The notes under the pieces are model-generated. The model did not search any database, was not told the DNA's origin, and saw only the letters and a list, made by a program, of their open reading frames with translations. From Puniceicoccales bacterium (GTDB lineage Bacteria > Verrucomicrobiota > Verrucomicrobiia > Opitutales > JAIRLG01), in assembly GCA_031288595.1 (NCBI GenBank), contig JAITRB010000007.1, positions 36,286 through 68,285 on the forward strand: a stretch of DNA of 32,000 bases, in the 5' to 3' direction. The translations under genes and the position numbers were made by a program. Of this stretch, positions 5,191 to 27,986 are shown in pieces; position 1 is the first letter of the stretch, and the number at the start of each line of letters is the position of its first letter.

Positions 5191-5272
5191 TGTGGCTGTC
5201 TTTGGATTCCGGAGGAATCACCCACGGAGTGGGTATCCGCCAGGCTGCAGCCTGGCGGCAAAGACAGCCACA
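5191..5272. repeat. Four-way-junction intergenic element, copy G (82 nt)
   Basis: Closing stem TGTGGCTGTCTTT (5191-5203) pairs with AAAGACAGCCACA (5260-5272). Inside are three hairpins: GATTCC-gga-GGAATC (5205-5219), ACCCAC-gga-GTGGGT (5220-5234) and CCGCCAGGC-tgca-GCCTGGCGG (5237-5258). It lies between the clpX-like stop and the SurA-like start. Confidence 0.8.
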
Positions 5273-5307
5273 GATAGCCGGTACGAGGCCTGGGTTCTGA
5301 AACGGTA

Positions 5308-7254
5308 TCAGTTCGGCGGCTCGAGATCGCTGGCATCGGGACTGGGATCAGGTGTTGGGGCCTGCTGGAACCAGGAATGCAGAGCCGCACCTGGGTTCTG
5401 GAGTTCCGGAAGGCCGATGAGGAACTGGCGCTGACCGGTGCGGCGGGCGAGGAGTGGCAGGCCATGGTGGAAATCCTGAAGGGCGATGTCACAGGTCGCC
5501 CGAAGGCTCTTGCCCGAGTGTTCCGACTGGGCCTCCAGAAAGACCATGGCCTCCTCCGTCAGGGCGAGAGATAGGCCGTGCATCTTGGCAAAGGCCTGAC
5601 AGAAGCGCTCGATAGCCTCCCGGGAATCGGTGGGGACCACCGATTCCCGCAGGAGTGATTGCAGGGCCGGCAGCGGCTGGCGGACCACATCGGCTGTCAG
5701 CTGGAGCTGCGAAACCGTCGTCGAGGGCAGTTCGAATTTGAAGTCCCGCAGACAGTTTTCCAGCACCGTGAGCAGTCCCCGGGCACCGGTCTTTTCCTCT
5801 TCGGCCCTGGCGGCGATGAGCTCCAGCGCCTCATCCGTGAGCTCCAGGTGGATGCCGTAGCCCAGGAAATCTTCCTGGTACTGTCGGAGAATGGAGCCCT
5901 CGGAGGAGATAAGGATCTGCTTCAGTTCCTTCCGCTTCAAGGCTTGGCAGGCGACCCGTACCGGCAGGCGGCCGATGAATTCCGGTTCGAAACCGTAGCG
6001 GATGAAATCCTCGGTTTTAGCCCTTTGGAAATAGGCGTAGGTATCCGCCTCGGGATCCTGGCTCTGACCGCTGAAGCCCATGGAGCTCGCCCCGACGCGC
6101 CTGCGGATGATCTCATCCAGCTTGTCGAAGGCCCCGCTGACGATGAACAGGATGTTGCGGGTGGAGAGGGTATCGGCCTGTCTGGAGCGCGAGGGGTTCA
6201 TCATGGAGCGCATCTGCCGCATGACGTCGTTGGGGCCCATGAGGCTGACCTCGGTGTCTTCCAGGAGTTTCAGGAGGTTGATCTGGACTCCGCGGCCGGA
6301 AACATCGCGCTGATCCCCGCTGCCGGCGATCTTGTCGATCTCGTCGATGAAGATGATGCCGTATTGGGCGAGATGGGTATCGCCGTTCGCCGCCTTGACC
6401 AGATCCCGCACCAGATCCTCGACATCATTGCCGACATAGCCGGTTTCGGAGAACTTGGTCGCATCGGCCTTGACAAAGGGAACACCGATGAGCCGGGCGA
6501 TGTGGCGGACGAGATAGGTCTTGCCCACGCCGGTGGGACCGAGGATGAGGATGTTCTGCTTGTTGTAGTCCTGATCCCGCCGCATCGGGTTTTCGATGCA
6601 GCGCCGGACGTGATGGTAGTGGTCGCAGATGGCGACGGAGAGTACCTTTTTCGCGGCGTGCTGCTCGATGACGAAGCGGTCCAGGTAGTCCTTCACCTCG
6701 CGTGGTTTGAAATTGAAGCTCTCGATCCGGTCGAGGGGGGTGATGGGCTCCCTCTCCTCGGAGGAAGTGCTGGCCGGAGCGGATTCCGTTGGTGTCTCGC
6801 CGTACATCAGCGGCGTGATCTGGATGTTCGTCGCTCGATTCAGAATTTCGCTGAACTTTTTGGTGAATTCCTCCAGCGGATTATTGGGCGTTTCATCCTG
6901 GGGAAAAGCCTGCTCAGGGGCTGCCTGGCCGGCCTCTTTCTCGACCGTCGCTCCGGTATTGGCCGTTCCACCGCAGGGGACTTCGCCTCCAGAATCCCCG
7001 TTGCGGGAACTTCTTACCCGGGAGGATTCATCGCCAGGAGCCCCGTTTCCGGAAACTTTGTTTCCGGAAGACTCGTCGCTGGAAATTCCATTTCCAGGGG
7101 ACTCATCCGGAGAATCTTCCTCGCTGGCAAGCCCACAATAGGGAATCATCCCCTCCTGCAGAAATTCCTCGCAAGGCACTTCCTGCCCGCAGGGGCCATC
7201 GGGAAACCCCTCATCGGGACGTATTTTCTCGTCCGCCGCATCGTTGCGCTCCAT
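5308..7254 (-). CDS. ClpX-family AAA+ ATPase paralog lacking the N-terminal zinc-ribbon domain, with N- and C-terminal extensions
   Basis: Walker A LILGPTGVGKT, pore loop ETGYVGNDVED, Walker B IIFIDEIDKI, and RDVSGRGVQINLLKLLEDTEV (compare ClpX RDVSGEGVQQALLKLIEG). SMGFSG sits at the position of the ClpP-docking IGF loop. There is no CxxC pair at the N-terminus. Instead there is an acidic Ser/Gly/Asp-rich repeat, SPDESPGNGISSDESSGNKVSGNGAPGDESS. About 140 extra residues follow the AAA+ module. Confidence 0.85.
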   Translation of the reverse strand: MERNDAADEKIRPDEGFPDGPCGQEVPCEEFLQEGMIPYCGLASEEDSPDESPGNGISSDESSGNKVSGNGAPGDESSRVRSSRNGDSGGEVPCGGTANTGATVEKEAGQAAPEQAFPQDETPNNPLEEFTKKFSEILNRATNIQITPLMYGETPTESAPASTSSEEREPITPLDRIESFNFKPREVKDYLDRFVIEQHAAKKVLSVAICDHYHHVRRCIENPMRRDQDYNKQNILILGPTGVGKTYLVRHIARLIGVPFVKADATKFSETGYVGNDVEDLVRDLVKAANGDTHLAQYGIIFIDEIDKIAGSGDQRDVSGRGVQINLLKLLEDTEVSLMGPNDVMRQMRSMMNPSRSRQADTLSTRNILFIVSGAFDKLDEIIRRRVGASSMGFSGQSQDPEADTYAYFQRAKTEDFIRYGFEPEFIGRLPVRVACQALKRKELKQILISSEGSILRQYQEDFLGYGIHLELTDEALELIAARAEEEKTGARGLLTVLENCLRDFKFELPSTTVSQLQLTADVVRQPLPALQSLLRESVVPTDSREAIERFCQAFAKMHGLSLALTEEAMVFLEAQSEHSGKSLRATCDIALQDFHHGLPLLARRTGQRQFLIGLPELQNPGAALHSWFQQAPTPDPSPDASDLEPPN

Positions 7255-7433
7255 GGGAGATAAGTATACACAGAAAATTCTCCCCTGGGCAATCCAGAAG
7301 CAGCGGTGTGGATGAAAAGAGTATCCGAGCGACCGAAAATGAAGCGGCGCAGCGGATTTATTCAGAAGGGCCAGGCTTCTCCTTTCGATTTTAGGGAGCT
7401 TGGGCTAGGGGAAACTGGCCGTGATCTTTTTCC

Positions 7434-26478: not shown

Positions 26479-27396
26479 ATGCCGGATGGTCTGCCCAATT
26501 TTTTTACAGCCACTGCTGGCCTGACGAACTTGGCCATCGAGCTCTGCGATATTCTGGAGCTGCCGCGATTTTTCACGGCCGAGGGCTTTACGGATTGCTT
26601 CCAGGAGAACTTTCTGCGCCCTTCGGAATTGGAGCGTTACCAGTGCAGTCGCCTGCCACCGGCGGCCAAGAACATGGACCGCGGGGCCTTTTACGAGCTC
26701 TGCCGCCGCTGGGGATTTCTGGAAGAGATCTTGCCCCGAAGGGCTCTGGGGGATTACGACGCCATCCTCATCTATGCCCTTGGCGTGGAGGGTATGTGCG
26801 CCGCCGGCCATTATCTGAAGAATCAACTGCTGCTGGCAAAGGAGCAGGGGGCGACATTCCTTCCGGACATTTTCGTCCTGACTGGCTCGCGCTTGCTGAC
26901 GATGGAAGGGGAGGAGGCAATGGCGGAGCATCTGCGGGAGCGCCACCTACCAGATACCGAGGAATGGGCGGCTCGCCTGCTTTTCCGCCATGCGCTGCAA
27001 GACCTGGAGAAATCCTTTGAGATCGTCTCGGTCCCCATGCAGCAGACCCATGATGCAGGGGGCACGTGCGTCTGGAGACGGCCGGATACCCGCGATACAC
27101 TGAGGGCATTTTTCTCGCAATGCGGCGCTCGAGAACAGAATTCCCTTCTGGCGATTTCCCTCAATCCCTTCGTCAGCTACCAGCACGCGGTGGGCCTAGC
27201 GACCTGGAGGGAAAAAGGGGGAGCTGCATTTTACCCCCAAGCCCTGGAAACCGTAGGCCCGCTGCATCCGCGCTTCATGCTCGAGCGCTGGAAATCGGAT
27301 GAGGAGCGCCTGATCGCGATTTTGCTCGATAATTTCGCCCGCTGTGCCTATGAAGAGCTGGGGTTATTGGTGAAGAGAGGAGCGGAATCGTGTTGA
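26479..27396 (+). CDS. Hypothetical cytoplasmic protein (305 aa) inserted between atpD and atpC
   Basis: Open frame with AAGGGAG 9 nt upstream of ATG 26479; the track ORF starts at GTG 26446. Its TGA stop overlaps the atpC ATG (TGATG at 27394-27398). No TM or signal peptide. There is a weak, unverified resemblance to DUF218/YdcF-type folds: YDAILIYALGVEG ... IFVLTGSR ... EEAMAEHLRER ... LLAISLNPFVSYQHAV. Confidence 0.6.
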   Translation: MPDGLPNFFTATAGLTNLAIELCDILELPRFFTAEGFTDCFQENFLRPSELERYQCSRLPPAAKNMDRGAFYELCRRWGFLEEILPRRALGDYDAILIYALGVEGMCAAGHYLKNQLLLAKEQGATFLPDIFVLTGSRLLTMEGEEAMAEHLRERHLPDTEEWAARLLFRHALQDLEKSFEIVSVPMQQTHDAGGTCVWRRPDTRDTLRAFFSQCGAREQNSLLAISLNPFVSYQHAVGLATWREKGGAAFYPQALETVGPLHPRFMLERWKSDEERLIAILLDNFARCAYEELGLLVKRGAESC

Positions 27397-27809
27397 TGGC
27401 GTTTGCACTGGTGACGCCGCTTGGCGTGATGCGGGAAACTGAAGTCGAATCAGTGGTCCTGCCCTCGGCCCTAGGGGAGATGGAGATTTTACCGGGGCAT
27501 CGTCCATTGTTGGCTCTACTCGTCCCGGGCGAGCTGCGCCTGCGGCAAGGAGAACAGGGGGAATCACTGGTCATTGACCGCGGGTTCGTCTATGTTTCCC
27601 GGGATCGTGTCGTCGTGACGGTGGAGCAGGCGATGAGGCTGCAGGAAGTGGATGTGTCGGCCGTGGAGCTCGCACAGCGGCGCGCAGAGGAGGCCCTGCG
27701 GGCAGCCGCCGGGCAGAGGGAAGCCCTAGATTCAGAAGAGATCAAGCGCCTGGAGGCAAAGATCCGCTACCAGCTGGCCCAGAAGGCGGTAAAAAATCGC
27801 TACAGCTAG
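27396..27809 (+). CDS. atpC: F1 ATP synthase subunit epsilon
   Basis: LVTPLGVMRETEVESVVLPSALGEMEILPGHRPLLALLVPGELRL...GFVYVSRDRVVV matches the epsilon beta-sandwich signature (G.MGILPGH.PL), followed by a helical C-terminal hairpin. The start is either ATG 27396 or GTG 27390. Confidence 0.85.
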   Translation: MAFALVTPLGVMRETEVESVVLPSALGEMEILPGHRPLLALLVPGELRLRQGEQGESLVIDRGFVYVSRDRVVVTVEQAMRLQEVDVSAVELAQRRAEEALRAAAGQREALDSEEIKRLEAKIRYQLAQKAVKNRYS

Positions 27810-27888
27810 GGTGCTTTCTGAGGTATTGCTCTTGGGAGTGCTCCCTAGGGGGAGGAAAGGCTATTGCTTGTGGAGATTCCGTTGTCTT

Positions 27889-27986
27889 GGGGCTGGCTTT
27901 TCATAGGAGTGCCGAGCGGGAACCACTCGGCACTCCTATGGGGCCCGCTCCGCGGGCTGATTCCTTCGGAATCAAAAGCCAGCCCC
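27889..27986. repeat. Four-way-junction intergenic element, copy E (98 nt), inverted relative to copies A and G
   Basis: Closing stem GGGGCTGGCTTTT (27889-27901) pairs with AAAAGCCAGCCCC (27974-27986). Hairpins are CATAGGAGTGCCGAG-cgggaacca-CTCGGCACTCCTATG (27902-27940, 15 bp), GCCCGC-tcc-GCGGGC (27943-27957) and GATTCC-ttc-GGAATC (27959-27973). It lies between the convergent atpC and M42 peptidase genes. Confidence 0.8.

Follow-up and report, generated by a model that had tools for sequence, protein, structure and literature searches.

Introduction

In behaviour, the closest described relatives of the repeats reported here are the REP (repetitive extragenic palindromic), BIME and REPIN sequences and the structured MITEs (miniature inverted-repeat transposable elements). 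Our subject is a 32,000-nt stretch of a Puniceicoccales bacterium (Verrucomicrobiota; assembly GCA_031288595.1, contig JAITRB010000007.1, positions 36,286–68,285; "the window" throughout), in which seven intergenic spacers each hold an element, named A to G, that folds as a four-way junction, a closing stem around three hairpins. A REP is a single imperfect hairpin of 20–40 bp with a GTAG/CGTC tag, and a REPIN consists of two inverted REPs forming one long hairpin. The MITEs or MITE-like repeats Correia/CREE, ERIC, BOX, RUP, Nezha and Chunjie fold as one long imperfect hairpin. Insertion sequences (ISs) such as IS1397/ISKpn1 and ISPpu9/10 insert into REP hairpin loops, and T- or Y-shaped terminal palindromes prime replication at linear-replicon ends in parvovirus inverted terminal repeats and Streptomyces telomeres. 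We know of no published interspersed bacterial repeat in which near-perfect palindromes with C(GNA)G-type triloops make up a closed four-way junction. REP/REPIN–RAYT systems have been reported in the verrucomicrobium Opitutus terrae (PMC3733652). Our literature search found no description of repeats like the present ones in Verrucomicrobia, nor of four-way-junction repeats, so that they are apparently undescribed, as an earlier model-made reading of the bare letters (the sequence-only reading) had supposed.

Like REP, BIME and REPIN sequences, the elements are high-copy, G+C-rich extragenic palindromes that lie mostly at gene ends, persist vertically, cluster, break assemblies, evolve with their structure preserved and show no obvious target-site duplication (TSD); REPs, too, are thought to be handled as folded single-stranded DNA. 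Unlike REPs, they are units of 77–125 nt in which a terminal inverted repeat (TIR), the closing stem of 8–17 bp, surrounds three distinct palindromes in fixed order. With the MITEs named above they share a non-coding body of ~100 nt, TIRs, many copies, subfamilies and intergenic position, and with BOX also a modular composition. Hairpin loops of palindromic repeats would serve as insertion targets, as for IS1397/ISKpn1 and ISPpu9/10, in three nested cases described below, except that the inserted unit belongs to the same non-coding family and is not a transposase-bearing IS. The viral and Streptomyces termini resemble the elements in their outer stem around small palindromes, GNA-type triloops, flip/flop loop heterogeneity and folded single-stranded DNA, whereas the elements are interspersed in the chromosome among housekeeping genes. 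Integron attC sites likewise combine conserved structure with variable sequence just after gene ends, are recognised as a folded single strand and, when long, can be branched. The distinction that the sequence-only reading had drawn from REPs, CRISPR repeats and canonical terminators is supported. We favour, with a probability of roughly 60%, the interpretation that the elements form one lineage-specific family of interspersed, non-coding nested-palindrome DNA repeats, REP/MITE-like, non-autonomous and mobile.

Results

Seven four-way junctions in the window

Folding with ViennaRNA (minimum free energy, MFE, and centroid) gave a closing stem of 9–16 bp around exactly three hairpins for all seven elements on both strands, with 0–3 unpaired junction bases. 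Their MFEs range from −56 to −99 kcal/mol (z −7.6 to −11.8), and for none of them did any of 200 dinucleotide shuffles reach an equally stable fold. When the whole window was scanned with a sliding 120-nt fold, the seven elements were the seven deepest minima (−67 to −100 kcal/mol against a background mean of −38.7, s.d. 9.0), and no eighth four-way junction was found; what few strong folders remain are either G+C-rich coding stretches or the CTGCAG tandem repeat, none of them a four-way junction. A strict detector, which accepts a closing stem only from 8 bp upward, with three near-perfect, unbranched hairpins and no more than 4 bases in the junctions, reported 57 four-way junctions in ~163 kb, comprising the window and related loci from metagenome-assembled genomes (MAGs), and two in 236 kb of GC-matched unrelated bacterial DNA. 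Because both-strand folds, shuffles and the sliding scan agree, the description of the seven elements as four-way junctions is accurate and far beyond chance. All seven locations given by the sequence-only reading were confirmed by folding, and the GGC(N)GCTTT motif, the 6-bp hairpin and the preference for GGA/TCC triloops that it had noticed are real. Its architecture stands, with one correction, namely that E and F are opposite in polarity to the other five.

The elements are listed in window coordinates, with hp1, hp2 and hp3 denoting the successive hairpins:

5191–5272, plus strand: element G, subfamily I, "GCTGTCTTTG" closing stem (5191–5204/5259–5272); hp1 GATTCC-GGA-GGAATC, hp2 ACCCAC-GGA-GTGGGT, hp3 CCGCCAGGC-TGCA-GCCTGGCGG
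7433–7528, plus strand: element A, subfamily I, "CTGCCGGCTTTC"; hp1 GATTCC-CAA-GGAATC, hp2 GCCCGC-TTC-GCGGGC, hp3 an 18-bp stem CCCCTGAGGGCCCAGGAC-GTC-...
12586–12699, minus strand: element F, subfamily I, "GCCGCCTTGG" type; hp1 GGGCCC-GCA-GGGCCC, hp2 CGGCCCGC-TCC-GCGGGCCG, hp3 a 16-bp GACGGAGAGGGAGAGG stem
18515–18618, plus strand: element B, subfamily II, closing stem GCAATGGCC...GGCCATTGC; hp1 GCTTTC-GGA-GAAAGC, hp2 14 bp, hp3 18 bp
21984–22089, plus strand: element C, subfamily II, GGGGCGCAATGGCC...; hp1 identical to that of B
23791–23894, plus strand: element D, subfamily I, "GGGCCGGCTTTC"; hp1 GATGCC-GGA-GGCATC, hp2 a 15-bp G+C stem, hp3 CAAGAGGGAAAGC...
27889–27986, minus strand: element E, subfamily I, "GGGGCTGGCTTTT"; hp1 GATTCC-GAA-GGAATC, hp2 GCCCGC-GGA-GCGGGC, hp3 CATAGGAGTGCCGAGTGG...

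One polar family with subfamilies

The seven elements are copies of one polar family of nested-palindrome repeats. Read with the shortest hairpin first, all copies have the order closing stem (GGGGCYGGCTTT...), hp1, hp2, hp3, which places G, A, B, C and D on the plus strand and E and F on the minus strand. The closing stem, usually (TTTT)GGGGCYG[G/T/C]CTTT(N), forms the TIR, in its fullest form TTTTGGGGCYGGCTTT ... AAAGCCRGCCCCAAAA. The first hairpin has 6–7 bp (GATTCC, GATGCC, GAGCCC or GCTTCC), the second is GGCCCGC-NNN-GCGGGCC, and the third comprises 13–23 bp with a purine-rich 5′ arm whose family-wide consensus is about CNNGGAGGGAAAAGG. B and C constitute subfamily II, with the closing stem GC(A/G)ATGGCC. 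Their hp1 resembles an "empty" subfamily-I closing stem, which is why the "GGCCGCTTTC" motif stands at another structural position in these two. Closing stems related to that of B (CG(A/C)(T/C)GGCC) are present at L037:3905, L037:6475, L064:2922 and L070:4279 (L numbers designate loci outside the window), and the nearest relatives of F are L003:2843 and L063:5220.

A covariance model (CM), R1, was built from the 46 subfamily-I sequences of alignment A3. These copies score 52–97 bits in forward and 18–49 bits in reverse orientation; the forward score exceeds the reverse by about 35–45 bits, and the polarity is therefore real. Such a model scan had been proposed along with the sequence-only reading, and R1 recovers all seven window copies. 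The five of subfamily I reach 52–82 bits (G 75.4, A 74.9, D 52.2, F 76.8 on the minus strand vs 39.1 on the plus strand, E 82.1 on the minus strand vs 42.5 on the plus strand), and B and C, both outside the training set, are found at 22 bits (E-value 0.004) and 19.3 bits (E-value 0.016), respectively.

Two further forms were seen in the related loci. The first is a third subfamily of 75–77 nt (GGGGCCCCGGGAC closing stem, three hairpins of 6–7 bp), represented by L067:3524–3600, L070:4454–4530 (minus strand) and L079:3344–3418, which is embedded in a longer conserved repeat of ~165 nt (92% identity) with an A-run directly downstream. The second comprises long D-type variants (L029:357–497, minus strand; L067:3135–3291, plus strand; L211:1738–1799) whose hp2 loop is enlarged by a G-rich insert (GGGCGGGTGGGTGGGG) and whose hp3 loop holds a C-rich one (CCCACCCACCC) complementary to it; the inserts covary between copies. 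It is possible that these complementary inserts form a loop–loop helix or are the relic of a nested insertion.

Pairing is conserved on both strands

For covariation, alignment A3 was combined with a consensus structure drawn from the MFE folds of the single copies (36 pairs, 1538 cells). Standard pairs fill 93.6% of the cells, compared with 75.5% in shuffles and 34–50% with slid partners; 29 of the 36 pairs show changes on both sides, and the observed covariation score was reached by none of 500 shuffles. The claim that sequence changes while pairing is kept thus reflects real covariation.

The signal is symmetric between the two strands. G·T accounts for 1.5% of 2386 pairs (35 on the oriented strand vs 23 on its complement), and the mean MFE is −75.7 kcal/mol for the oriented and −75.0 kcal/mol for the reverse strand. 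Within tandem spacers the polarity of the element is that of the upstream gene in 16 cases and opposite in nine, and orientation relative to GC skew (31:21) or to the majority gene strand (16:14) is not significant. Tandem, convergent and divergent spacers are occupied 31/12/6 times against a background of 73/23/18 obtained with a crude gene caller. Equal folding, the rarity of G·T on both strands and the missing bias in gene orientation argue for DNA palindromy and against a strand-specific RNA; the constraint points to DNA palindromy or a strand-indifferent function, not to one RNA.

Triloops make up 142 of the 171 hairpin loops, and 131 of these are closed by C-G; 97 triloops read GNA or the complementary TNC, and a further 24 read AAA or TTT. 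C(GNA)G is the hyperstable DNA mini-hairpin motif of Hirao and Yoshizawa. Both complements of a loop triplet occur within one polarity (e.g. GGA/TCC, GAA/TTC, TGC/GCA), as loop flipping through recombination between perfect arms should produce. The flanks are asymmetric family-wide (G+T 64% upstream, A+C 68% downstream), so that a T-rich flank lies 5′ and an A-rich flank 3′ whichever strand is read. The two flanks of an element show no more complementarity to each other than re-paired flanks do.

Lineages, turnover and nesting

The sequence-only reading had regarded the long hairpins as unrelated between copies and the pattern as unlike that of amplified MITE copies. Neither statement survives comparison with the related loci. 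The 5′ arms of hp3 sort into lineages, which reappear at loci that are unlinked and in more than one genome. Element A's hp3 is found again in the L024 ortholog, at L067:2932 and L110:4456, and in a truncated extra copy at L024:508–581; the lineage CCTGGAGGAAAAGGAC is present in four copies and GCAAGGGACAAATGGC in three, and some lineages are common to two related MAGs, bin38 and bin136 (see below). Some copies are near-identical (e.g. L003:1228 and L003:2530; L095:1133 and L095:2947), and within one lineage (L003, L027, L102:6826) the stepwise change from G-C through G·T to A-T is visible.

Copies persist at orthologous sites in close relatives and are gained, lost or replaced between more distant ones. 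Compared with their L024 orthologs, G and A together show six compensated pair changes, one change that is uncompensated and, at the tip of hp3, two symmetric insertions. The ortholog of G (L024:4210–4310, minus strand) contributes three of the compensated changes and a symmetric insertion of 8 bp per arm, and that of A (L024:1708–1809, minus strand) three compensated changes, a symmetric insertion and the uncompensated change; symmetric tip insertions also set apart A, L024 and L067. The ortholog of D, a long hp2 variant, directly follows the stop codon in the 91%-identical relative L211, whose contig ends inside it. An element island is conserved between L020:3567–3652 and L063:148–237 (81% identical), although it lies in an otherwise unalignable spacer between genes that are only 65–67% identical. 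Comparing orthologous spacers, a check that the sequence-only reading had suggested, showed that the presence of elements varies between relatives. L204 has the synteny of the window (ABC transporter, atp operon, M42 peptidase) at ~75% protein identity, and "CCGCCTTT"-type members are found in its spacers at both the D-site and the E-site, the E-site copy (L204:11457–11564) being oriented opposite to E. The D-site spacer holds a member of a different subfamily in L204 and L205 and no element in L206 and L207.

Neighbouring elements tend toward a shared orientation (P = 0.03), and clusters of three to four copies occur within one spacer. Moreover, in three cases the hairpin apex of one element holds another, complete element, and the composites fold as nested structures (z about −13):

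L101:1598–1802, minus strand: insert in hp2 of the host element
L063:3828–4030, plus strand: insert in hp1 of the host element
L079:2080–2340, plus strand: insert in hp3 of the host element

In the L101 case, an inverted duplication of 7 nt (GGAGCGG/CCGCTCC) flanks the insert and lengthens the host hp2 from 7 to 14 bp. With its shared hp3 lineages, near-identical copies, gain and loss, and nesting, the family therefore behaves as an amplifying, mobile repeat.

Distribution among relatives

A genome pattern scan covered one genome per species, and only the matches listed were considered. Among these, at least 25 contigs belong to "Puniceicoccales bacterium Pcl387_bin38" (JAITKE01; bin38, 60% G+C) and "Pcl387_bin136" (JAITIW01; bin136, 46% G+C), next to scattered single matches in unrelated taxa. 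MAGs labelled Pcl387 are described as originating from the gut of lower termites. L024, a bin38 locus, is orthologous to window positions 3893–8470 with 83–89% nucleotide identity, which makes the source of the window a related organism. With 61 CM-defined copies in 163 kb (window plus JAITKE/JAITIW loci), small non-coding units and a TIR of 8–17 bp, the family has the generic features of a MITE, a TSD and a parent IS excepted, neither of which was identified. Its density is about one copy per 3–5 kb in this clade of termite-gut Puniceicoccales (Verrucomicrobiota), a figure that is biased upward for the MAG loci because these were ascertained by pattern match.

Over 1.84 Mb of loci, R1 found ~54 distinct copies, all from the two MAGs bar one weak match. 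The weak match in L044 (Verrucomicrobiaceae), the sole one in the other ~560 kb of pattern loci, was rejected on account of its missing fold (z −1.8). No copies were detected by R1 in 1.1 Mb of loci around distant homologues, in the 84 kb searched of eight viral contigs plus L001, or in 64 kb of three other termite-gut Puniceicoccales MAG contigs. Overall, some 60 copies besides the seven came from the clade, and ~1.9 Mb of sequence from outside it yielded none. Pattern matches on viral contigs and plasmids are chance, having neither a CM nor a BLAST match, and a metagenome scan with the ABC-transporter protein returned only relatives of 40–47% identity, with no elements there.

In related samples, Logan contigs assembled from short reads begin just behind element D (window position 23932, start of L001) or end inside it (end of L211), and the 91%-identical ABC-transporter gene is found alone on a 1.8-kb Logan contig (L211). 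The elements, which fill perhaps 2–3% of these genomes, appear to fragment short-read assemblies of this lineage of termite-gut Verrucomicrobia.

Gene context

The window is a housekeeping chromosomal region, as judged from genes supported by Pfam/NCBIfam and from ARAGORN, with these genes:

First half: secD, yajC, ABC permease, SurA-like peptidyl-prolyl isomerase, AAA+ ATPase, rpoZ, smpB, rpsT, tRNA-Leu, thyX
Second half: fabF, accB, accC, der, a fusion of substrate-binding protein (SBP) and permease, atpG-atpD-(unknown)-atpC, M42 peptidase

Against these supported genes, all seven elements are intergenic, as had been claimed, and six of the seven, in tandem or convergent spacers, follow a stop codon at a distance of 10–80 nt. 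G is found 36 nt past the stop of the AAA+ ATPase gene (5308–7254, minus strand) and 22 nt ahead of the start of the SurA-like gene (4186–5169, minus strand). F occupies the convergent spacer between a FAD/NAD-binding reductase gene (11364–12518, plus strand) and thyX (12736–13497, minus strand). B lies 30 nt past the fabF stop (18484), upstream of accB. C follows the der/engA stop (21954) by 30 nt and precedes the conserved promoter-like TTGACA/TATAAG of the ABC-transporter gene, a region that is kept in L211. D is located 10 nt past the stop of the SBP/permease ABC-transporter gene (22221–23780), upstream of atpG, and E in the convergent spacer of atpC (27390–27809, plus strand) and the M42 peptidase gene (28126–29184, minus strand). 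The exception is A, preceded by a T-run, whose spacer context had to be corrected. An open reading frame (ORF) of 210 amino acids (aa) at 7862–8494 on the minus strand is spurious, since codon-position G+C and NCBIfam show rpoZ and smpB on the plus strand, and the spacer is divergent, between the start of the AAA+ ATPase gene (7254, minus strand) and rpoZ (7641–7907, plus strand).

On neither strand is any of the seven copies followed by a T-run, which confirms the absence of a U-tract noted from the letters. Classical hairpin plus T-run terminators, with no element, end smpB (8006–8470, plus strand; terminator at 8498–8520) and rpsT.

Candidates rejected

Several known classes of structured element were tried and set aside. 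A REP assignment finds no tag, GTAG, CTAC, CGTC or GACG being present anywhere in only 20 of 57 copies and, by eye, in none at a fixed end position. Integron attC sites were ruled out because R″/R′ core ends occur in 0 of 57 copies, with no cassette array, no integrase and housekeeping neighbours in synteny. Intrinsic terminators were excluded by the missing U-tract after the seven copies and the family-wide T-rich 5′ and A-rich 3′ flanks, and a tRNA-like element by ARAGORN and Rfam, which call only the tRNA-Leu at 9492–9576, as well as by the triloops and the closing stem of 9–16 bp. Cuckoo RNA (2–4 adjacent hairpins with CCUCCUCCC loops and no closing stem) does not fit variable triloops and a closing stem, and a retron msr/msd was dismissed because the scanned window ORFs hold no reverse transcriptase domain and seven copies lie in 32 kb among housekeeping genes. 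At the gathering score, Rfam 15 returned only the tRNA-Leu for the window, and for the elements at E ≤ 5 only sub-threshold miRNA-hairpin matches; the view that this is not a described RNA family is upheld by that search.

Discussion

A probable mobile palindromic DNA repeat

The family behaves like a mobile palindromic DNA repeat, not like an RNA gene or a classical terminator, and in its behaviour it is closest to REP/BIME/REPIN sequences and structured MITEs. From its distribution and structure, we propose that a structure-specific enzyme, acting in trans and encoded outside the window, may recognise the element as folded single-stranded DNA and move it in that form, and that hairpin loops would be preferred insertion targets, a preference that would itself generate the nested architecture of stems enclosing hairpins. 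Perfect palindromy would be kept at the DNA level by hairpin formation and intra-strand template switching, by selection on both strands, or by both; quasi-palindrome correction by template switching is an established process. Co-transcribed at gene ends, the stable fold probably bars 3′ exonucleases or read-through in either orientation, a side effect that the host may exploit.

More speculatively, and in our estimate unlikely as a whole, the family could represent a new kind of bacterial mobile DNA in which the transposing unit is a single-stranded four-way junction that inserts into hairpin loops, including those of its own copies, in which nested palindromes grow by templated extension of their tips, and which is mobilised by a candidate structure-specific enzyme other than the RAYT that recognises GTAG-tagged hairpins. 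If the favoured interpretation is right, DNA secondary structure, not sequence, would be the heritable and recognised feature of a repeat. With its unusually clean covariation, its copies nested in one another and its growing hairpin tips, the family could then lead to a new structure-specific DNA enzyme. For the discovery of RNA motifs the family is a caution, as its strong covariation and extreme z-scores most likely reflect DNA palindromy.

Several observations weigh against the interpretation as a mobile repeat. No recurrent direct repeat was seen at the flanks, and the filled and empty D-site spacers are too diverged to align; with neither a TSD nor an exact filled/empty junction, transposition is deduced from distribution. 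The window contains no transposase, RAYT gene or other candidate enzyme, a domain scan of its unannotated ORFs yielding no transposase or nuclease domains. The search for a RAYT or recombinase gene that the sequence-only reading had suggested was equally negative in the ~130 kb of sampled MAG loci, which hold no multi-copy gene candidate and no repeat longer than 311 nt. Recombination, and not insertion, could have produced the three nested cases, one of which, L101, shows an inverted duplication at the host hp2. The conserved island and the re-occupied spacers could equally mean host selection for a function at these sites, and the densities in the MAG loci carry the upward bias noted above.

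Alternative explanations

Host selection for an orientation-independent barrier at gene ends is the main rival and is compatible with mobility. It would make the element a host-selected, RNA-level device, either a U-tract-independent terminator or operon insulator working in either orientation or an mRNA 3′-end stabiliser, spread by selection at gene ends and not by selfish mobility; we consider it unlikely as the primary explanation. The position of six of the seven window copies 10–80 nt after a stop codon fits such a role, as do the placement of C and D between a gene end and the next conserved promoter region and the strong terminators of smpB and rpsT, which have no element. That one spacer can hold different subfamily members from lineage to lineage, that an island is conserved across a 65–67% nucleotide split and that the RNA folds are extremely stable on both strands also speak for it. 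On the other hand, divergent (promoter) spacers hold A as well as five of the MAG copies, and occupancy by spacer type is roughly that of the background. The flanks are T-rich upstream and A-rich downstream on either strand, with no U-tract, and nesting and clusters of three to four copies are needless for termination. REPs and MITEs share the gene-end distribution simply because insertions are tolerated there, and E. coli REP elements are mobile-element relics and mRNA stabilisers at once. Should the elements indeed block in either orientation at gene ends, this lineage would have in them its own replacement for canonical terminators. Among the roles that the sequence-only reading had proposed, structured RNA is disfavoured by strand symmetry and a classical terminator by the T-rich upstream and A-rich downstream flanks in both reading directions; a folded-DNA enzyme target and an mRNA 3′-end barrier are the two candidate roles left.

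Palindromes might also propagate themselves with no dedicated enzyme, through template switching, hairpin nicking and fill-in, or recombination between copies. This would account for the symmetric tip insertions between orthologs (G vs L024; A vs L024 vs L067), for the lengthening of the L101 host hp2 from 7 to 14 bp by inverted duplication, and for both loop-triplet complements in one polarity, which stem-mediated loop inversion should produce; the failure to see a TSD or find a transposase also agrees with it. Such processes explain the upkeep and growth of palindromes, but not the appearance of polar ~100-nt units at dozens of unlinked spacers, and they leave the sharing of lineages between genomes 14% apart in G+C unexplained. 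As a full account we hold them improbable.

Less probable still are sites of site-specific recombination or protein binding (attC-like, Xer-type, or a nucleoid or gyrase binding array). Conserved structure with variable sequence recalls attC, the perfect 15–17 bp palindromes of hp1 and hp2 resemble dimer binding sites, and neighbouring elements tend to share orientation (P = 0.03). Against this, RYYYAAC/GTTRRRY ends are present in 0 of 57 copies, the surroundings consist of syntenic housekeeping genes and not of cassettes, no integrase lies nearby, and the stems covary freely, so that pairing matters and a fixed recognition sequence does not.

A family of strand-specific structured non-coding RNA genes, finally, would fit the very strong covariation and the defined polarity, but is barely credible given equal folding on both strands with G·U almost absent and no strand excess, no orientation bias relative to genes, no conserved unpaired nucleotides (junctions of 0–3 nt, mostly variable triloops), nested and truncated copies, and no Rfam match.

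Further observations in the window

A block upstream of atpG (24066–24119, AAAAACATTGCTATCYGG...GATCGATTAC) is nearly invariant in four lineages (window, L204, L206 and L207), between which the surrounding spacers are otherwise unalignable; judged by this conservation, it is probably a promoter or 5′-leader element. Between atpD and atpC, a 316-aa ORF (26446–27396, plus strand) has no Pfam/NCBIfam match and is kept at the same place in L204 (304 aa), an unusual insertion in an ATP synthase operon. Four ORFs of 300, 291, 539 and 571 aa at 13594–17001 (minus strand) and 9630–11345 (plus strand) show a good coding G+C pattern and no family match except a weak T2SS-L match of the 539-aa ORF. Two stretches of low G+C (1000–3200 and 29000–31000; 47–53% vs ~59%) contain ORFs (1739–3169, plus strand; 29437–30282, minus strand) whose family matches are absent or weak, and these may be acquired or fast-evolving genes. 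The CTGCAG-based tandem repeat at 31412–31533 (period 6/15/21, ~6 copies of 15 nt) sits within a long minus-strand ORF (30840 to beyond 31718) and gives spurious Rfam miRNA/isrG matches and a weak R1 match.

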